Shown here piece after piece: positions 42,317-62,297 of a stretch of 64,000 nt of DNA. The notes beneath the pieces are model-generated. The model had not been told where the DNA came from, did no database searches, and was given only the letters and a program-made list of their open reading frames with translations. This DNA comes from Bacteroidota bacterium (lineage in GTDB: Bacteria > Bacteroidota > Bacteroidia > Flavobacteriales > Flavobacteriaceae), in assembly GCA_051751125.1 (NCBI GenBank), contig JBNJKO010000009.1:62211-126210 (forward strand), written 5' to 3'. The position numbers and the translations under genes are program-made. Position 1 is the first letter of the stretch. Each line of letters opens with the position of its first letter.

Positions 42317-45058
42317 TCAATTCCGGGAATTTATTTCAACTGCCTTGGCCCTTTTGTCCTTTTTGGCATTGAATAGTTTAAATAGTTCCATTACCAAAAT
42401 TATGGGAACGGCCAACAGAAGAATATAAAACCATTCACTTACTGTAATAGGTTCAATCCTGAGAATATTTTGCATAAATGGAAGTTGCATGCTCAGTATA
42501 TGGATCCCCTGTGCAATAAGAACTCCAAATACCAGAATTACATTTCTTTTTAGCGGTGTTTTAAAAGCCGAAACCCTTTCAGAACGACAATTGAAAACAT
42601 GGAAGTTTTGCATGAACACCATTAAAAGTAAAATGAGATTCCTGGCATGAAATTCTTCCATTTGAGTATAGTTGTTGAGCCAAAACCAGAACCCAAAAAC
42701 TATAATTCCTATGGTAACGCTGGAAACCAGGGTTTGCTTCACCATTAACGGATTAAAAATTTTCTCTGATGGACTTCTTGGTTTTCGCTTCATGGCTCCG
42801 GGTTCCCCTTTTTCAAAAGCCAGGGCAACATCCTGGATCCCGTTAGTTACAAGGTTAAGCCAAAGCAATTGCACGGCGAGCAAGGGAAGGGGAAGACCGG
42901 CCAAAATCGAACAAATAAAAAGAATTACTTCTGCTGCTCCGGTAGAAATAAGAAGATAAATCACTTTCCGTACATTGTCATATGCAAACCTCCCTTCTTC
43001 TACCCCGGCTACAATCGAAGAGAAATTATCGTCTACTACAATCATAGATCCTACTTCCTTTGCGACATCGGTGCCGGAACCCATAGCTACACCTATATTT
43101 GCCCTTTTTAAAGCCGGAGCATCATTAACTCCATCTCCGGTAACCGCGACAAATTCTCCCTCCCCAATTAAAATATCCACGATCTCCAGTTTTTGCGATG
43201 GCGACACCCTTGCAAACACCGTTGCAGATGCCACAAGGTCTTTATATGTCTTCGTATTTGGCAAATTTGCTTCCTCGAGCATTTTCCCGTTTATCACTTT
43301 GCTATCCTCATTGGCAATTCCCAATTCGCAGGCAAGTGTTTTGGCTGTGGAGGGATGATCTCCGGTAATCATAATAACCTTAATTCCTGCTTTTTTACAA
43401 TCTTCTACCGATTCGATGGCCTCCCTGCGTAATGGATCTATAAACCCTACGAGCCCATAAAAAGTGAGTGTTGGAATATCTTCCGGTTGATAATTTTTTT
43501 TTCTTTCATAATCAGGACTTTTCCTGTTGGCAAAAGCAAGAACTCTATATCCTTGTTTCGCCAATTTATCCGCCTGCTCCAAAATATAACCCCTGTCAAG
43601 TTCAACAGGGGAACCATCAATAGACATAGTATCACAAAAATCAAGAACGGTTTCTACAGCTCCCTTTAGATCGATATTATTGTTTTCACAGAATGCTGCG
43701 GAAAATTTTCTTTCCGATTCGTACGGAATTAAATCTGATGGATCTTTTTCAGCCTTTTCAGGAGCTAATCCAAATTTATAGCTCATTCCCAATAAGGCAA
43801 CATCCATGGAATCGCCATAATGCACCCATTTGTTATTTTCTTTAGTGAGACTGGCTTCATTGGCACAAACTGCGATTCTGCAAATTTTCTGAAGTTCTCT
43901 GTTTTCCGAAAATGATATTTTCCTTTCCGGTTCATCTTTTCGAAAAACGTTACCGTCTCCGTTGTAGCCTTCTCCTTGAATGTGGAAAATACTCCCATCC
44001 GGCAAAACCACTCTTTTGGCAGTTTGTTCATTCACTGTGAGCGTCCCGGTTTTATCACTGGCAATAACGGTGCAACTACCAAGACTTTCAACCGAGTTGA
44101 GTTTGCGTACAATTACATTGCGTTTTGCCATGCGTTTGGCAGCAATAGACAGGGCAACCGTAAGTGCTACTGGTAAACCTTCAGGAATTGCAGAAACTGC
44201 CAGGGCAACCACAAAAAAGAAAATATCCATTAGGCTTGATCCCTGCAAATAAAGCATAACCCCAATGATTAAACTGAGTACCATTATAAAGATGCCTATT
44301 TGCTGTATGAATTTCTCCATACGCTGCACCAGCGGAGGCTTAGCCGACTCCGATTCTGTAACATGCATTGAAATTTTTCCTACTTCAGTTTCTATACCTG
44401 TGGAAACCACCACACCCCAACCACGTCCGTAAAGCACGGTTGAACCGGCAAATGCCATATTAGTTCGTTCTGCAATACCAAGGTTTTCAGAAAGGATACC
44501 GGTTTGTTTTCTTACAGATACGGATTCTCCGGTTAAAAGACTTTCATCTATTTCAAGGCCTGAAGATTCGATAAGCCGAATATCTGCAGGAACCTTAACT
44601 CCCGATTCCAATAAAACCACATCCCCAGGAACCAAGTCTTCTGAAGGTATCAACAATTGTTTTCCCTCCCTCCGCACGCTTGCCTTAATTCTTAAAAGTT
44701 TTTGCAATGAGGCAGCGCTTTTTTCAGCATTGTATTCCTGGTACGTACCAACTGCACTATTGATTAAGATCACAAGAAAAATAAAAATTGCATCTTTAGC
44801 TTCCCCAATTACGATCGAAGCAATTGCAGCAGCGACAAGAATAAATATGAGGGGATTTAGCAACTGGTGAAGGATAATTTCCCACACGGTAACTTTCTTA
44901 CCCTCCGGAAGTTTATTCTCTCCGTAGATTTCACGTCTGGATGTAACTTCCTCTGGGGAAAGACCAACTTTTGAGGCTTTTAACTTATCAAAGATCTCTG
45001 AATCTTCAATCGCATGCCATGCTTCCCCTGAAATTTGTTTTTTTAGTTTCATTCTCAA
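42317..45058 (-). CDS. P-type (type II-like) cation-transporting ATPase
   Basis: DESLLTGES, AIPEGL, DKTGTLT, MITGD and TGDGVNDAPALK. Confidence 0.95.
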   Translation of the reverse strand: MRMKLKKQISGEAWHAIEDSEIFDKLKASKVGLSPEEVTSRREIYGENKLPEGKKVTVWEIILHQLLNPLIFILVAAAIASIVIGEAKDAIFIFLVILINSAVGTYQEYNAEKSAASLQKLLRIKASVRREGKQLLIPSEDLVPGDVVLLESGVKVPADIRLIESSGLEIDESLLTGESVSVRKQTGILSENLGIAERTNMAFAGSTVLYGRGWGVVVSTGIETEVGKISMHVTESESAKPPLVQRMEKFIQQIGIFIMVLSLIIGVMLYLQGSSLMDIFFFVVALAVSAIPEGLPVALTVALSIAAKRMAKRNVIVRKLNSVESLGSCTVIASDKTGTLTVNEQTAKRVVLPDGSIFHIQGEGYNGDGNVFRKDEPERKISFSENRELQKICRIAVCANEASLTKENNKWVHYGDSMDVALLGMSYKFGLAPEKAEKDPSDLIPYESERKFSAAFCENNNIDLKGAVETVLDFCDTMSIDGSPVELDRGYILEQADKLAKQGYRVLAFANRKSPDYERKKNYQPEDIPTLTFYGLVGFIDPLRREAIESVEDCKKAGIKVIMITGDHPSTAKTLACELGIANEDSKVINGKMLEEANLPNTKTYKDLVASATVFARVSPSQKLEIVDILIGEGEFVAVTGDGVNDAPALKRANIGVAMGSGTDVAKEVGSMIVVDDNFSSIVAGVEEGRFAYDNVRKVIYLLISTGAAEVILFICSILAGLPLPLLAVQLLWLNLVTNGIQDVALAFEKGEPGAMKRKPRSPSEKIFNPLMVKQTLVSSVTIGIIVFGFWFWLNNYTQMEEFHARNLILLLMVFMQNFHVFNCRSERVSAFKTPLKRNVILVFGVLIAQGIHILSMQLPFMQNILRIEPITVSEWFYILLLAVPIILVMELFKLFNAKKDKRAKAVEINSRN

Positions 45059-45327
45059 TTAAATTATGAATAGTTCACGTGTATTTTAAATGTGTACAAT
45101 CAATTTTTCAAATCAAATTTGCAGCGGGGAAAGCAAATCTTTAGGTTTAACCCATACATATAAAAGATACTAAAATAATGAATTTTGCCTTATAATTTAA
45201 TCGAAAGCTTTGTGAGATTAATCATTAAACAGCCATATTTCAAAACCTGGAGATTTAACCAGCGAACATTTTATGGCATATTCATTTTAAACGAGCACAT
45301 ATAAACCGGGATTATTATTAAAACTAT

Positions 45328-45385
45328 AACCGACAACAAACGTTTACAAACGAAAGTAAACGAAAACAAACCCTTCACAACCGAC
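45328..45385 (+). repeat. Helically phased decamer array (AAACG every 10 bp) upstream of ssb
   Basis: Consecutive 10-mers cgacaacaaa/cgtttacaaa/cgaaagtaaa/cgaaaacaaa/cccttcacaa, bounded by AACCGAC at 45328 and 45379. Confidence 0.6.
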
Positions 45386-45404
45386 TAAGGTTAGGTGCCT
45401 GCTA

Positions 45405-45412
45405 TAAGTTTG
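45405..45412 (+). promoter_or_regulatory. -7 element TAAGTTTG for ssb
   Basis: Exact TAnnTTTG match 49 nt before the ATG. Confidence 0.55.
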
Positions 45413-45461
45413 TCCTGTTGAAATGAACCAATGATTTTCAACTGCAATAAATTCTATCGTT

Positions 45462-45794
45462 ATGAGCACTTTAAGAAACAAAGTACAATTGATTGGCCAC
45501 GTAGGAAACGAGCCTGAAATCATGAATCTTGAATCCGGTAAAAAACTGGCGAAATTCTCCATCGCTACCAATGAGTCTTACAAAAACTCCAAAGGCGAAA
45601 AGATCACAGACACCCAATGGCACAATATTATCGCCTGGGGCAAAACCGCCGAACTCATCGAAAATTATGTTCCAAAAGGAAAAGAAGTGGGCATTGAAGG
45701 AAAACTTACTTCCCGCAGTTATGAGGACAAGGAAGGCCAAAAGCGCTACATTACAGAAATTGTGTGTAATGAATTGCTGTTGATGGGAAAATAA
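45462..45794 (+). CDS. ssb: Single-stranded DNA-binding protein lacking the acidic C-terminal tail
   Basis: NKVQLIGHVG, FSIATNE, TQWHNIIAWG and EGKLTSRSYEDKEG; ends at ...ELLLMGK (110 aa). Confidence 0.92.
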   Translation: MSTLRNKVQLIGHVGNEPEIMNLESGKKLAKFSIATNESYKNSKGEKITDTQWHNIIAWGKTAELIENYVPKGKEVGIEGKLTSRSYEDKEGQKRYITEIVCNELLLMGK

Positions 45795-45837
45795 GATTCA
45801 ATGCTTATTCTTTATCCTCGAAAAGGGACATTCACTA

Positions 45838-45870
45838 AGTACTCCGTGGAAATATTTTTTCCGGAGTACT
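45838..45870 (+). terminator. Hairpin downstream of ssb, possible terminator
   Basis: AGTACTCC/GGAGTACT plus an inner GGAAA/TTTCC stem, followed by taattttt. Confidence 0.5.
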
Positions 45871-46070
45871 TAATTTTTGAGGTTTCCTCCTCTAAGGAGA
45901 AAAATAATTACTTTGGGAAAAGTTCACGAGCTGTTTCTAAAGAAGAAATATCCGGTATTTTTGATGGATTTCCCGGTCTATAAGAAAGGGCGGGCATCAG
46001 GGGAATTTAATTTAAGAATGGGAATCAAAACCTCGATAAAATTAAACAACGAATGAAGCAGGAAAAAATT

Positions 46071-46116
46071 AAAAAATCCGGGGCAAATCCGCCTGAATGA
46101 TTCGGGTAGGCCCAGG
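46071..46116 (-). terminator. GC-rich hairpin with a minus-strand T-tail after the deacetylase gene
   Basis: CCGCCTGAA-TGA-TTCGGGTAGG (with G-U pairs) next to a plus-strand A-run. Confidence 0.45.
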
Positions 46117-46139
46117 AAAATTAAACTCTCAATGAGGGG

Positions 46140-47042
46140 TTAAAAATAGATCTCCTGTGCCATTCTATAGGTGTTCGCATGGGCTTCAATAATAGTTTTA
46201 ATATCCGGAGAATATCCTCCGCCCATACTCACTTCAACAGGAATTTTATGGTCTTTACAAGTTTGAAGTACAAACCTGTCGCGCTCTTTGCACCCGGCTA
46301 CAGAACAGCCCAGCTTTCCAAGTTTATCGGTAAATAAGATATCTACCCCGCTTAAAAAAAAGATAAAATCGGGCTTTTGTTTTTCAATTAATTCAGGCAG
46401 GGTTTCTTTGAGGATTTTCAGATATTCTTCATCGCCGGTTCCGTCTGCCAGTTCAATATCTAAATCACTGCTTTCTTTTTTAAAGGGGTAATTGTTCTTT
46501 CCGTGCATCGAGAAAGTAAAAACCGAAGAATCATTTTCAAAGATCTCTGCAGTACCATTTCCCTGGTGCACATCCAGATCGACGATTAAAATTTTTTCAG
46601 CCAGTTTTATCTTCTGAAGGTATCGCGCCGCAATTGCCTGATCGTTTAACAAACAAAATGCTTCCCCATGCTTTGTGTAGGCGTGATGGGTTCCACCGGC
46701 TATATTCATTGCTATTCCATATTGCAAAGCAAATTCACTGGCTTTTATGGTTCCATCGGCAATGATTTGCTCACGGTTTACCAGGGCTTCTGAAAGCGGA
46801 AATCCAATTTTTCTTTCTGCCCGTTTATCTAAACATAAATCCTGTAATGACCGGAAATAATTTTCGTCGTGCACCGCGAGAATCACAACTTCTTCTGGCA
46901 TTCCCGGCTTGAAGAAATTGGCTTCGGTACAGCTTCCTTCATGAAGCAACTGTTTTGGAAGCAGCTCATATTTTTCCATTGGAAAACGATGCCCTTCGGG
47001 AAGGGGGTGTTTGTAAATGGGATGGTAAGCGATTTTGAGCAT
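46140..47042 (-). CDS. Histone deacetylase-superfamily (HDAC/AcuC-like) protein
   Basis: HRFPMEKY, AGGTHHA, DLDVHQGNGT, FSMHG and MGGGY. Confidence 0.92.
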   Translation of the reverse strand: MLKIAYHPIYKHPLPEGHRFPMEKYELLPKQLLHEGSCTEANFFKPGMPEEVVILAVHDENYFRSLQDLCLDKRAERKIGFPLSEALVNREQIIADGTIKASEFALQYGIAMNIAGGTHHAYTKHGEAFCLLNDQAIAARYLQKIKLAEKILIVDLDVHQGNGTAEIFENDSSVFTFSMHGKNNYPFKKESSDLDIELADGTGDEEYLKILKETLPELIEKQKPDFIFFLSGVDILFTDKLGKLGCSVAGCKERDRFVLQTCKDHKIPVEVSMGGGYSPDIKTIIEAHANTYRMAQEIYF

Positions 47043-47065
47043 TAATTTTTTTTAGATCCTGTTCT

Positions 47066-47089
47066 GTCAGTTCGAGCGCAGTCGAGAAC
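47066..47089 (+). repeat. GTCA-tagged REP-like hairpin, copy 1
   Basis: GTCA-GTT-CGAGCGCAGTCGAG-AAC, 8 nt from the GIY-YIG stop codon. Confidence 0.85.
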
Positions 47090-47097
47090 CAATGAAG

Positions 47098-47418
47098 TTA
47101 TTCATCTTCAGATTTATGTTTATGATTTGATACATTTCTGCATTCAGCCAGAATCTTTAGCAAATCAAAATCTTTCTCAATTAAAGCTCTTTTCTTTTGA
47201 GCACTCCATCTTTTTATTTTTTTTTCAAAATAAATTGCCTGATTGACATCAATGAATTCCTGGTGGAATTTTAAAGTTACCGGCCTTCTTTTATGAGTAA
47301 AACTACGTTTGTTTAATCCTGAATTATGTTCCGTCAATCTTCGCTCTATATTATTGGTGATACCAGTATATAGCAGTTCATATGAACATTCGAGTATGTA
47401 AACATAGTAGCGCTTCAT
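47098..47418 (-). CDS. Stand-alone GIY-YIG nuclease (UPF0213/YhbQ-YazA-like)
   Basis: YYVYIL...LYTGITNNIERRLTEH...EKKIK, with Y7, Y17, G19, R27, H31 and E65 all present. Confidence 0.92.
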   Translation of the reverse strand: MKRYYVYILECSYELLYTGITNNIERRLTEHNSGLNKRSFTHKRRPVTLKFHQEFIDVNQAIYFEKKIKRWSAQKKRALIEKDFDLLKILAECRNVSNHKHKSEDE

Positions 47419-47443
47419 AAGAATAATTTAGATGACCTACCAA

Positions 47444-47467
47444 CCCCTCGACTGCGCTCGGGGTGAC
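47444..47467 (-). repeat. GTCA-tagged REP-like hairpin, copy 2 (inverted relative to copy 1)
   Basis: Minus strand GTCA-CCC-CGAGCGCAGTCGAG-GGG, ending 25 nt before the GIY-YIG ATG. Confidence 0.85.
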
Positions 47468-47474
47468 CATTGCT

Positions 47475-47522
47475 GTCAGTTCGAGCCCTTCGACTTCGCT
47501 CAGGACAGGCTGCGTCGAGAAC
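47475..47522 (+). repeat. GTCA-tagged REP-like hairpin, copy 3, with an enlarged loop
   Basis: GTCAGTTCGAGC-[insert]-GTCGAGAAC; the first 12 and last 9 nt are identical to copy 1. Confidence 0.85.
47487..47509 (-). repeat. Related GTC-tagged hairpin (copy 4) nested in the loop of copy 3
   Basis: Minus strand CCTGTCCTGAGCGAAGTCGAAGG shares the GAGCG(A/C)AGTCGA core. Confidence 0.7.
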
Positions 47523-47528
47523 TTCTTG

Positions 47529-49616
47529 CTAAGAAATCACCGTCCCATTCTCAACTCCATCGGTATCAGGGTTTAAAAACACCAGTTTTCCCTTGGCATC
47601 TTCGGTCATCAGGATCATCCCCTGACTTTCCACCCCGCGTAATTTCCTGGGAGCAAGGTTAACAAGTACAGTTACTTTTTTACCTATGATCTCTTCCGGT
47701 TTAAAACTTTCTGCTATCCCCGAAACGATGGTTCTAACATCCAATCCCGTATCAACCTTCAACACGAGCAGCTTATTGGCTTTTGGCATCTTTGTGGCTT
47801 CCACGATGGTTCCTGTACGCAGGTCCATTTTTGAGAAATCTTCAAAAGTAGCGGTTTCCTTTTGTGGTTCCAGCTTTTTATTTTCTGCTTCGTTAGCAGC
47901 TTTGGTAGTTTCCAGTTTTTCCAATTGTTCCTGAATTTGTTCTTCCTCAATTTTGCTGAAAAGCAATTCGGCTTTTCCTATTTTATGTCCCGATGAAAGC
48001 AATGCCTGTTTGGTGGATATCTCATCCCATGAAGTGGCTTCCTTTCCAGGAGCAGGAATACTTTCCTGTTCCATATTCAATATCTTTTTCAATTTTGCTG
48101 AAGTGAAGGGCAAAAATGGTTCGCTTAAGGTTGCAAGGGCTGAAGCTATTTGTAAAGCTACATACATAACGGTTTTCACGCGTTCCTCATCTCTTTTAAT
48201 AACTTTCCACGGCTCTTCATCTGCGAGGTATTTATTTCCAAGCCTGGCCAGGTTCATCAATTCTCCCTGGGCCTCGCGGAATCGGTATTTCTGAATAGAG
48301 CTTGCTATTACTGCAGGATATGCTCTTAAAGTGGCAAGGGTTTGTTCATCCACTTCAGAATAATCTCCGGGGGAAGGAACTTCTCCTTCGTAATACTTAT
48401 CTGTAAGCACCACTACCCTATTGATGAAATTCCCGAAAACGGCGACCAGTTCATTGTTATTCCTGGCCTGAAAATCCTTCCAGGTAAAATCGTTATCCTT
48501 TGTTTCCGGGGCATTGGCTGTTAAAACATACCTCAGCACATCCTGCTGCCCGGGGAAATCCTCAAGGTATTCATGCAACCAGACCGCCCAGTTTTTAGAG
48601 GTGGAAAGTTTCTTTCCTTCCAGGTTTAAAAATTCATTTGCAGGAACATTGTCCGGCAAAATATAACTTCCTTCTGCTTTTAAAATAATGGGGAAAATAA
48701 TACAATGAAAAACGATGTTATCCTTTCCTATAAAATGTACCAGTTTGGTATCTTTTGCTTTCCAGTAATCCTCCCAATTTTTTCCTTCCCGCTCTGCCCA
48801 TTCTTTTGTAGAGGAGATGTAACCAATGGGAGCATCAAACCAGACATAAAGCACCTTCCCATCTGCACCTTCAACGGGTACGGGAATTCCCCAATCCAGG
48901 TCACGTGTTACCGCACGGGGCTTCAGGCCGTCATCTATCCAGGATTTCACCTGCCCGTATACATTTACTTTCCAGTCCTTTTTGTGCCCTACCAGGATCC
49001 ATTCCTTCAGCCAGTCTTCATATTGATCCAGCGGTAAAAACCAATGCCTTGTTTCCTTCATTGTAGGAACTGCACCAGAAATAGCTGATTTAGGATTGAT
49101 AAGATCGGTGGCATTAAGGGATGAGCCGCAACTTTCACATTGATCTCCATAAGCCTCTTCATTTCCGCATTTGGGACAGGTTCCGGTTACAAAACGATCG
49201 GCAAGAAATTGGTCGGCTTCGGCATCATAAAGCTGCTTGGTAGTTTCTTCAATAAACTTTCCGTCTTCATATAATTTCCTGAAAATTTCAGAAGCTGTTT
49301 CGTGATGAATCTCAGCAGAAGTTCTGGAATAATTATCAAAGGACACCCCAAAATCAACAAAAGATTGCTTGATTATGGCGTGGTATTTATCTATAAGTTG
49401 TTGTGGCGAAATACCTTCTTTTTTAGCTTTCATCGGGATAGCTACTCCGTGTTCATCGCTTCCGCACACAAAAGCCACATCATTTCCCTGCATTCTTAAA
49501 AACCGTGCATAAATATCGGCCGGAACATAAACGCCTGCTAAATGTCCAATGTGAATGGGGCCGTTTGTATAAGGTAATGCTGCGGTAATGGTATATCGTT
49601 GTGGTGAAGTATTCAT
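47529..49616 (-). CDS. metG: Methionine--tRNA ligase with a C-terminal tRNA-binding (OB) domain
   Basis: HIGH motif, Zn knuckle CPKC...[19 protein letters not shown] and C-terminal GVESQGMIL. Confidence 0.97.
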
Positions 49617-49735
49617 TTATTCCTGAAATTTTTTTAGTCCGTAAAGGTAAGCATCTACTAAATAGTACACGTTAAAATCTTGCAAAAGACGCTTTCTGTA
49701 TGGGAATTCTGTCTATTTTTATCCAAACTTAACCA

Positions 49736-50308
49736 ATGAGAAAACTATTACTCCTGCTCACAGTCTTGAGCCTGGCATCCTGTAAAACCGCTAATAAACC
49801 TATAACAAGCCCTGCCGACCGATTTATGATTGAAGATCTTGTGGAATTAAATTCCGAAGAGATAAAAACCCGCTATCCGGATGCAGATATAAAGGTGGGA
49901 ATAGGAATTTATGAAGAAGGCACAGAAGAACGGCCTTATTGCATTTTATTCCCCGATACTCCCAACCATTTGGAAATAACCTGGAAAGATTTGGAGCGAA
50001 CAGAAATATACGATATCCGTTTTACCGAAAAAGGAAACTGGAAATCCTCTACAGGAATTGGAATTGGAACCACCCTTGACCAATTAAACCAGCTAAACAG
50101 CAAACCAGTTTCCTTCTATGGATTTGGATGGGACTACAGCGGCGCAGTAGTATGGAATGACGGAAAACTTGAAAACAGCGGTCTTTTTGTATTTCTTGAA
50201 GCCAGAAATATACCCGGAGAATTTTATGGAGATCATATCATAAAAGCTTCCGCAGAAGAAATAGTAGCATTAAATCTTAAAGTGCAAACCCTGATCTTTA
50301 AAAACTAA
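49736..50308 (+). CDS. Lipoprotein of unknown function
   Basis: Lipobox LASC; contains FYGFGWDYSG. Confidence 0.8.
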   Translation: MRKLLLLLTVLSLASCKTANKPITSPADRFMIEDLVELNSEEIKTRYPDADIKVGIGIYEEGTEERPYCILFPDTPNHLEITWKDLERTEIYDIRFTEKGNWKSSTGIGIGTTLDQLNQLNSKPVSFYGFGWDYSGAVVWNDGKLENSGLFVFLEARNIPGEFYGDHIIKASAEEIVALNLKVQTLIFKN

Positions 50309-61661: not shown

Positions 61662-62297
61662 TTAGTAAACTAAAATTACTTCTTTTTTTGTTATCACAAA
61701 CACCTGATCACCAACATTTGGCGTAATCCAGTAATTCCCAGTGAATTCTCCAAAAGCAGGCAGTATTAATTGTTCTCCGCTTTTATAAAAACATCTGAGT
61801 TTAACCTGCTGTCTCCCTGCCCCATTAAGCTTATAACCCGGATGCAAATGCCCGCAAAGATTAAAGTAGTTTTCCCTGGTTTCCGGATGATGTGTTAACA
61901 GAAGGTTTTCCAGGATCAATTCTGAATAAACCTCAATCTCAAGGGCTTCGTATTTTAATTCTGAAATGATATCGTGATTACCCACCACAAGCATGACCTC
62001 AGCTGAAATATCCTGCATCCAGTTTTCAAATAAATCCCATTCCAGGTTAAGGGAACTGTGAAAAAGATCTCCTAAAAAACAAATTTTTTCAGGCTGAAAA
62101 TGGTCTACAACCTGTGATAAACGCTCAAAATTTTCGGCTATGCCATTTTGGGGGACAGCACTACCGTATTTTCTAAAATGGGAGATTTTTCCCAAATGCA
62201 CATCGCTTATAAGCAGCATTTGTTCCTCATTCCAAAACATAGCACCGGAAGGGTGAAGACTTAAATTTTGCCCGAGTATTTCAATGTTTTCTATCAC
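61662..62297 (-). CDS. pdeM: Ligase-associated DNA damage response metallophosphoesterase/endonuclease (PdeM/MPE), GTG start
   Basis: SDVHLGK, LGDLFH, GNHD, GHLHP and LPAFGEFTG; directly downstream of the Lhr-core helicase. Confidence 0.88.
   Translation of the reverse strand: MIENIEILGQNLSLHPSGAMFWNEEQMLLISDVHLGKISHFRKYGSAVPQNGIAENFERLSQVVDHFQPEKICFLGDLFHSSLNLEWDLFENWMQDISAEVMLVVGNHDIISELKYEALEIEVYSELILENLLLTHHPETRENYFNLCGHLHPGYKLNGAGRQQVKLRCFYKSGEQLILPAFGEFTGNYWITPNVGDQVFVITKKEVILVY

Follow-up and report, generated by a model that had tools for sequence, protein, structure and literature searches.

The 64,000-nucleotide (nt) stretch analysed here (the window; positions 62,211 to 126,210 of contig JBNJKO010000009.1, from the flavobacteriaceal Bacteroidota assembly GCA_051751125.1) carries, in the spacer between metG and a histone-deacetylase-family gene, a small GIY-YIG nuclease gene surrounded by four copies of a tagged hairpin repeat. 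We read this locus as a nuclease/hairpin-repeat cassette of the published Ssn/SRM kind, belonging to a UPF0213-like branch of the nuclease family and using a repeat architecture that falls outside the published motif, and we put the probability of this reading at roughly two in three. As the principle, a very small GIY-YIG nuclease that goes with a hairpin repeat of its own, is already published (PMC11893778), the locus is not a new kind of system. The analysis showed that the pairing of protein and repeat is specific, each nuclease clade having its own repeat family, and that the cassette, at one and the same site, is subject to turnover that is independent of the neighbouring genes. In what follows G000 is the window's own genome, the other G-numbers are relatives within the genus, C-numbers are contigs and L-numbers are loci.

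In the published system (Chenal et al. 2025, Nat Commun 16:2388; PMC11893778), the NTS repeats of Neisseria, whose consensus begins CGTCATTCCCGCG, and the related SRM hairpins flank homologues of ssnA; at least one SRM lies near 71% of these homologues and 42% have one on both sides. SsnA itself (NMB0047/NMV_0044 of N. meningitidis) is a single-domain GIY-YIG protein of 94 amino acids (aa; CDD cd10448). Binding to the hairpin takes place only with single-stranded DNA (ssDNA); cleavage falls a few nt upstream and is governed by the three bases that precede the palindrome, and double-stranded DNA (dsDNA) is left uncut. Ssn homologues of three other species cut beside their own repeats. In N. meningitidis SsnA reduces transformation by repeat-bearing DNA, and this restriction of incoming ssDNA is the sole role tested for the family. 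The same paper likened NTS-ssnA-NTS to an insertion sequence and proposed its domestication (PMC11893778). Our literature search found no other paper tying GIY-YIG proteins to repetitive extragenic palindromes (REPs), REPINs or miniature inverted-repeat transposable elements (MITEs), nothing relevant for YhbQ/COG2827/UPF0213, and nothing later that takes Ssn further, towards mobility, Bacteroidota or UPF0213 proteins. An earlier note on this DNA, made from its letters, took (C)GTC-tagged REPs to have been described without a dedicated transposase. That is true of the survey of REPs with GTAG and CGTC tags published in 2013, which gives the CGTC class no dedicated enzyme (PMC3733652), but it no longer holds since the Ssn paper (PMC11893778). 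The note's further suggestion, that the nuclease recognises or nicks the tagged hairpin, is established biochemically for the homologous SsnA and, by homology, probably extends to the window's protein.

Each repeat unit at the locus consists of an unpaired tag, (C/T)GTC(A), a 3-4-bp stem that varies from copy to copy, and a 12-nt core, GAGCGNAGTCGA (Table 1). Copies 1 and 2 form an inverted pair (21 nt, 86%) with the gene between them and the tags outermost. The first 14 nt of copy 3 repeat copy 1 directly without mismatch (14/14), and the tail of copy 1 is also present, the copy being interrupted after GAGC by copy 4. A strict form of the repeat pattern had 2 matches in the window and 0 in 100 shuffles; besides the four copies there are none within the window, and the whole G000 genome holds 22 copies of the core. 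The encoded protein is covered by the GIY-YIG domain from residue 4 to 76 (PF01541, E 2.7e-16, 60 bits against a cut-off of 22.6), and the Pfam scan found no second domain above threshold and no separate DNA-binding domain. Y7, Y17, G19, R27, H31 and E65 are all present and are invariant across 43 repeat-linked homologues, and the gene is under purifying selection (ratio of nonsynonymous to synonymous divergence, dN/dS, 0.06-0.15). NCBIfam models did not match the protein, while PADLOC and PHROGs returned weak domain-level matches at most and no PHROG assignment. Re-reading the locus therefore bore out what the earlier note had described, namely the gene and its four repeats with tags outermost, the intact catalytic residues, copy 3 as a version of copy 1 split by a nested copy 4, and the lack of any further family member in the window.

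That the repeat is a structured element is indicated by covariation. Across 90 distinct copies of the core, drawn from G000 and from loci of relatives, the four pairs flanking the core are Watson-Crick in 86-96% of copies, compared with 30-56% in shuffled columns, and each stem position uses 2-4 Watson-Crick pair types. The tag, T-G-T-C-A, is 70-90% conserved over the same copies and pairs no better than chance. The two ends of the cassette differ consistently, with GTCA-CC(C/T) before the start codon and GTCA-G.. or GTCA-TGC after the stop. In 11 other species the orthologous cassette likewise has the GTTC...GAAC-TGACA type of copy 1 after its stop codon, and orthologous cassettes have the GTCA-CC(C/T)C type of copy 2 before the start codon. 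The relative G021 also has the composite of copies 3 and 4, there flanking the gene on either side. An Rfam scan of positions 44000-50000 at E<=1 returned no family, and a terminator scan called none of the repeats terminator-like.

The link between nuclease and repeat is well above chance. G000 has only two small GIY-YIG genes, that of the window and one on contig C23, and the latter is boxed by 3 or 4 repeats of another family, CGTCA-tagged palindromes in which an 8-bp stem closes a loop of 3-5 nt. The two families found at these genes (F1 and F2) together amount to 40 repeats in 3.82 Mb. Seven of the 40 lie within 200 nt of the two genes, where 0.015 are expected, or 0.12 if repeats are confined to non-coding DNA (P below 1e-10). 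The sampling was widened to 33 genomes of the genus, which contain 53 small GIY-YIG genes (0-9 per genome, with 6 of the 33 lacking any homologue), and each gene was scored by the best ungapped inverted match between its 130-nt flanks. A score of >=13 was reached by 28/53 of these genes against 9/1200 control open reading frames (ORFs) of G000 and 6/422 controls with non-coding flanks, although the P values overstate independence because the genus genes share descent, if at many different loci. Small GIY-YIG genes of the genus are thus repeat-flanked more often than control genes, a comparison that the earlier note had proposed to make across Flavobacteriia. At the level of the phylum, 91 of 201 genomes have a homologue at E below 1e-8, and 10/26 loci pass the same flank score, mostly with GTCA-type tags (TGTCA, GTCAT). 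Core counts point in the same direction, the median being 13 in genomes with a gene of the window's clade (clade A, below) and 5 in those without it (one-sided Mann-Whitney P 0.012, no phylogenetic correction).

A tree of 50 GIY-YIG proteins from the genus resolves six repeat-linked clades (A-F), each with one repeat family and none mixed. Clade A, to which the window's gene belongs, has the repeat core GAGCGNAGTCGAG and clade B the core GAGCCTGTCGAAG; clade C has a long form of the repeat with another hairpin as its apical part; clade D, the clade of the C23 paralogue, has the CGTCA palindromes; and clades E and F have repeats of the GTCATTGCGAG and GTCATTCYGAA types. The same 12-nt core, within other stems (GGCT/AGCC and GCCC/GGGC), also flanks a 43%-identical GIY-YIG homologue on a plasmid of Sphingomonas parapaucimobilis (NZ_CP155752.1), so the core is conserved with the protein across phyla. 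This plasmid gene (L136) lies between nrdR and an RNA methyltransferase gene, with the core CTGAGCGAAGTCGAAG at 470-560 and 880-910, and the tag of its repeats reads CGTTCA or GTTCG, not TGTCA. No tagged repeats were found at seven more distant GIY-YIG proteins of the genus tree, which fall into four small groups, some of them beside tRNA genes. In G018, G014 and G020 (L054, L056 and L057 among the loci) such distant genes adjoin tRNA genes with duplicated tRNA 3' parts; the tRNA-adjacent genes without tagged repeats appear to be a different kind of GIY-YIG cassette.

To place the protein relative to Ssn, GIY-YIG proteins flanked by exact NTS halves were taken as the canonical Ssn-type reference, standing in for SsnA itself. 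A scan for inverted 13-nt NTS halves 325-355 nt apart gave at least 120 loci in many phyla, and 67 of 119 segments between such halves contain a GIY-YIG domain; these are the canonical cassettes. Their layout, NTS-gene-NTS with the tags outermost, is that of the window's cassette, and the median gap between hairpin and gene is 11 nt at the ATG and 4 nt at the stop codon, against 25 and 8 nt in the window. The window's protein is 35-40% identical (44-50 bits) to 46 proteins flanked by exact NTS halves, one pairwise case being 35% identity over 84 residues with a canonical NTS-flanked protein. A profile of clades A-C aligned with a profile of the NTS-flanked proteins plus clades D-F over the full length (hhalign 99.9%, E 3.6e-31, 91 columns). 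In a joint tree rooted with repeat-free GIY-YIG proteins, the canonical NTS-flanked proteins group together (support 98), with clade D as their sister. The nearest structures in the PDB are the UPF0213 proteins BH0048 (1ZG2, E 1.7e-9) and EF2693 (1YWL, E 4.7e-9), with 41 bits for the single sequence, and these matches settle the fold. On our reading of these sequence comparisons, the window's gene would be related to Ssn, linked to repeats, and placed on a UPF0213-like branch. The inverted NTS-half pairs themselves (L138-L257) occur in Proteobacteria, Dehalococcoidia, Nitrospirota, Planctomycetota and one metagenome-assembled Rikenellaceae genome, with at least six on a single Dehalococcoidia chromosome (OY282371.1), and the identity of their sequence across phyla suggests that the NTS hairpin may have spread horizontally. 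The Neisseria loci recovered by the inverted-pair pattern are NTS clusters without ssnA.

Comparison of the metG-deacetylase spacer among relatives shows it in several states. Gene and repeats occupy it in about twelve species, while in five species it measures 44-104 bp with an ordinary terminator hairpin, in one species it has a single repeat, and in two it has a doublet without the gene. In one of these two, G022, a copy-1-type and a copy-2-type repeat stand 35 nt apart at the gene's position and the gene is missing; the repeat doublet without a gene at this site, for which the earlier note proposed to look, is therefore found. Species with the gene, with repeats alone and with neither are intermingled on the metG tree, and near-identical sisters differ: G006 is occupied and G013 empty, G010 occupied and G002 empty, and G041 is occupied where G015 has a doublet. 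The divergence of the cassette is likewise uncoupled from that of its neighbours. Between G000 and G021 the synonymous divergence (dS) is 0.087 for the GIY-YIG gene, 0.35 for metG and 0.51 for the deacetylase gene, and 298 of 300 nt are identical over 47232-47531 with flanks at roughly 90%, whereas between G000 and G003 the nuclease gene has a dS of 2.08 and metG of 0.44. In G017 the orthologue lies at another locus, about 45 kb from the metG spacer. The C23 cassette is absent from G021 (111 bp vs 612) and from G042, in which the flanks abut. Doublets without a gene still have one left-type and one right-type end, and here too the tags are outermost. At one F2 doublet locus the relatives carry a different hairpin.

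Nested repeats occur at a single fixed point. Whole tagged repeats are inserted in inverse orientation after GAG and before GTCGA of the host core, both in copies 3 and 4 and, with a different inserted sequence, in four copies of a MITE-like element, and hence at least twice independently. At the same apical position, unrelated hairpins are found in the repeats of clade C and in some of those of clade A. This suggests that the hairpin apex is a preferred insertion point.

Several observations weigh against assigning the locus to the Ssn/SRM kind. The stability of single hairpins, -1.5 to -3.5 kcal/mol with nearest-neighbour DNA parameters, is not above that of shuffles, and for this reason the hairpin claim rests on covariation. 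The published SRM pattern recognises canonical NTS but misses copies 1, 2 and 4, and it has 0 matches in the window and 3 in the G000 genome. In the joint tree, clades A-C, including the window's gene, form the other branch, outside the canonical NTS-flanked clade. Moreover, the A-C profile matches BH0048 and EF2693 with 67 and 57 bits (E 9.3e-18 and 2.1e-14), above the 39 and 30 bits of the canonical plus D-F profile; being closer to UPF0213 than the Ssn-like profile is, the window's nuclease could have a different substrate. The window's protein is known from its sequence, Ssn from biochemistry. Complete genomes without a clade-A gene, too, still carry 11 to 24 core copies, and the 22 core copies of G000 are few. 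On the question of mobility, one F1 subfamily in G000 forms the centre of the MITE-like element, which is about 135-143 bp long and has a tagged-repeat doublet at its core. This element has 20-bp imperfect terminal inverted repeats of its own, the left end being TTGTATATCCGTTAAGAGACC. One copy represents an insertion when compared with G021, the closest relative, and has an 8-bp duplication, AAAATTAA, at its borders; G021 carries copies elsewhere (86-91% identity). Because the repeat doublet forms just the core of the element, the tags are not the ends of this mobile unit.

By homology to SsnA, the window's nuclease would bind its repeat in ssDNA, as exposed in replication, repair or DNA uptake and transfer, would read the TGTCA tag, the covarying stem and the core, and would cut a few nt 5' of the tag. 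The unit would persist as semi-selfish DNA and not as a classical transposon, the cassette being gained, replaced and lost via recombination at the repeats or repair of breaks made by the nuclease. A role of the nuclease in the spread of the repeats or of the cassette is hypothetical, both here and in print. A bolder version of the assignment is tentative, and we would not favour it at present: the UPF0213-like branch (clades A-C, with GAGC...TCGA-core repeats) may be a second family of hairpin-guided ssDNA nucleases whose autonomous mobile cassette disperses TGTC/CGTC-tagged REPs and doublets, the nuclease may drive the insertion of whole repeats into apical cores, and the branch may have been overlooked as the published motif misses its repeats. 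If so, this would be a first function for UPF0213/YhbQ-type proteins and a mobilising enzyme for the CGTC-REP superfamily.

Much of the comparative evidence is also what REPtron-like transposition would produce, with the nuclease itself excising and inserting repeats, doublets and the gene-bearing cassette, as is thought for REP-associated tyrosine transposases (RAYTs) and GTAG REPs. Presence and absence between sister species, the decoupled divergence of the cassette, gene-less doublets with the same ends (that in the G022 metG-deacetylase spacer included), the inverse insertion of whole repeats at the same core point in at least two independent events, the G017 orthologue at a different locus and the 0-9 gene copies per genome all fit. 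We nevertheless consider transposition by the nuclease rather unlikely. A hydrolytic GIY-YIG enzyme forms no covalent intermediate, so the joining step would have to be host-derived; the one clean insertion that could be resolved is that of the MITE, with its own terminal inverted repeats and 8-bp duplication and not tag-ended; and repeats persist in genomes without the gene. Occupied and empty alleles, furthermore, differ across the whole metG-deacetylase spacer, and for that reason homologous recombination in the flanking genes, replacing one allele by another, accounts for the data as well as insertion does. Distinctly less probable again is a homing-type selfish gene, in which the nuclease would cleave gene-less repeats or doublets serving as landing sites and repair would copy the gene in. 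Doublet-only and gene-bearing alleles at one site, the attachment of each clade to one repeat family and the near-identical 300-bp tract of G000 and G021 within diverged flanks, which fits gene conversion, would suit such a gene. It is hard to reconcile with one gene copy per repeat family in G000 despite about 20 potential targets, with homology arms of about 25 nt, short for recombinational repair, with a protein devoid of the separate DNA-binding domain of known GIY-YIG homing enzymes, and with Ssn homologues that leave dsDNA uncut (PMC11893778).

A domesticated host function, as in Neisseria, is a serious contender even though we lean away from it. Here the nuclease would cut ssDNA beside scattered repeats and so tune recombination, transformation or conjugative uptake, and the flanking copies would be regulatory or ancestral. 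This is the sole role shown experimentally for a member of the family (PMC11893778), and purifying selection and the retention of the gene at the same site in about 12 species speak for it. The gene is absent, however, from many close relatives, with 6 of the 33 genus genomes having no homologue at all, the 22 repeat copies in G000 are too few to mark much of the genome, and the coexistence of up to six nuclease/repeat pairs within a genus, at 0-9 copies in each genome, looks parasitic and not like housekeeping. That the association is fortuitous is very improbable. The hairpins are weak, their copy number in G000 is low, and a spacer between two housekeeping genes tolerates insertions, so repeats and a dispensable gene might gather in permissive spacers, or the hairpins might be plain terminators or RNA elements. 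Such hitch-hiking would not account for the enrichment in G000 (P below 1e-10) and in the genus (28/53 vs 9/1200), for repeat families that partition perfectly by protein clade, or for the same core around a homologue on an alphaproteobacterial plasmid, and neither the terminator scan nor Rfam recognised the repeats. Taken together, these considerations leave a cassette of the Ssn/SRM kind as our preferred reading.

Table 1. Positions of the nuclease gene, its repeats and flanking genes in the window, and of the MITE-like element elsewhere in G000.
Feature	Position	Strand	Description and basis
GIY-YIG nuclease gene	47098..47418	-	single-domain, 106 aa, Ssn-like/UPF0213-like; ORF and Pfam PF01541
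Repeat copy 1	47064..47089	+	'right end' type, 8 nt past the stop codon; tag CTGTCA (47064-47069), stem GTTC (47070-47073), core GAGCGCAGTCGA (47074-47085), stem GAAC (47086-47089)
Repeat copy 2	47444..47468	-	'left end' type, 25 nt before the ATG; tag read GGTCA, stem CCCC/GGGG, core as copy 1
Repeat copy 3	47473..47522	+	copy-1 type, with both the head and the tail present; 6 nt separate its end from the metG stop
Repeat copy 4	47487..47509	-	whole tagged repeat nested in the core of copy 3, inverse orientation; tag CTGTC, stem CCT/AGG, core GAGCGAAGTCGA
metG, methionyl-tRNA synthetase	47529..49616	-	upstream flank, outside the cassette; ORF; neighbour conserved in relatives
Histone-deacetylase-family gene	46140..47042	-	downstream flank, outside the cassette; Pfam PF00850, E 3e-57; neighbour conserved in relatives
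MITE-like element	G000 C1, about 216190-216340 (L109:393-541)		other copies on C1, C5, C7, C11, C13 and C29

Other palindromes and transposase genes were noted in G000 and its relatives. G000 has five Y1_Tnp genes, with no F1 or F2 repeats within 500 bp. One of these, a RAYT/IS200-like gene at C10:87209-87764, has inverted repeats of its own, one of them with GTAG, and its flank score of 17.5 is the highest of the 1200 control ORFs. A REPtron-like unit thus appears to coexist in G000 with the GIY-YIG cassettes, using different repeats. Two more abundant palindrome families that occur elsewhere in G000 and not in the window, TTGTCCnnnGGACAA (67 copies, within GATTGTCCGCAGGACAATC) and CCCTCAWTGAGGG (44 copies), showed no link to either GIY-YIG gene of this genome. 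Around position 150500 of C2 (L111:370-470, 530-560), a hairpin family, CCCCCGAAGGGGG/CCCCCTTCGGGGG, lies on both sides of a CGTCA doublet, and these hairpins are conserved in G021 and G003. The clade-A core also forms one-strand arrays in G016 and G014, both without a clade-A gene. Core spacing is exactly 192 bp at G014 C36:262611-262995, about 310-390 bp at G014 C21:10902-12310 and irregular (100-450 bp) at G016 C2:740210-742124. In these two genomes the clade-A repeat may belong to a longer unit repeated in tandem.

With this locus the pairing of nuclease and hairpin repeat reaches into Bacteroidota and the UPF0213-like branch. Its repeat architecture escapes the published search pattern, as do the CGTCA palindromes of C23, so published counts of such systems are likely underestimates. 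The six nuclease clades of one genus, with a repeat family apiece, offer a natural panel in which to work out hairpin reading by a protein of about 100 residues, and they are a source of new specificities for cutting ssDNA. The Ssn paper has no counterpart to the comparative evidence that the cassettes turn over independently of their neighbours, and this evidence bears on how CGTC-type REPs spread.

Among known systems, the UPF0213/COG2827 proteins (BH0048 and EF2693, with an SLX1-like 'URI' domain) have in common with the window's protein the stretch RRLTEHNSG; to our knowledge they have no assigned function and no link to repeats. The GIY-YIG homing endonucleases I-TevI and Seg join the catalytic domain to a separate C-terminal DNA-binding domain and are found in introns and phages, and the window's gene differs in encoding one domain in 106 aa and in its chromosomal spacer setting. 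The IS200/IS605 insertion sequences, with the Y1 transposase TnpA, resemble the cassette in subterminal hairpins that are unlike at the left and right ends, in a short unpaired tag beside the hairpin and in acting on ssDNA. They differ in their covalent tyrosine intermediate, which the window's enzyme lacks. GIY-YIG enzymes work by hydrolysis, with no covalent intermediate, and we know of no strand-transfer step among them; neither a conserved target tetranucleotide nor a clean excision site was evident for the window's cassette. With REPtrons the cassette shares an enzyme gene between inverted tagged palindromes, scattered gene-less doublets and the co-variation of enzyme clade and repeat family, but the enzyme is a GIY-YIG hydrolase in place of an HUH/Y1 transposase and the tag is TGTCA or CGTCA, not GTAG. 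The CGTC/TGTC REPs of Di Nocera, De Gregorio and Rocco (2013, PMC3733652) likewise have a tag at one end, form dimers and occur in Bacteroidetes. The C23 repeats fit their description (stem of 8-9 bp, loop of 4-5 nt; PMC3733652), while the window's repeats differ in having four covarying pairs around a long 12-nt core. From the Ssn/SRM system, whose paper does not discuss Bacteroidota (PMC11893778), the window's cassette is set apart by this 4-bp stem and 12-nt core in place of an 8-bp stem and a 3-5-nt loop, and by a repeat that is present in tens and not hundreds of copies and is not matched by the SRM pattern. The two are alike in their single-domain GIY-YIG protein of about 95-106 aa, the inverted hairpin frame, the 5' (C/T)GTCA tag placed outermost, a repeat that is also dispersed in the genome, and different homologues that go with different cognate repeats.

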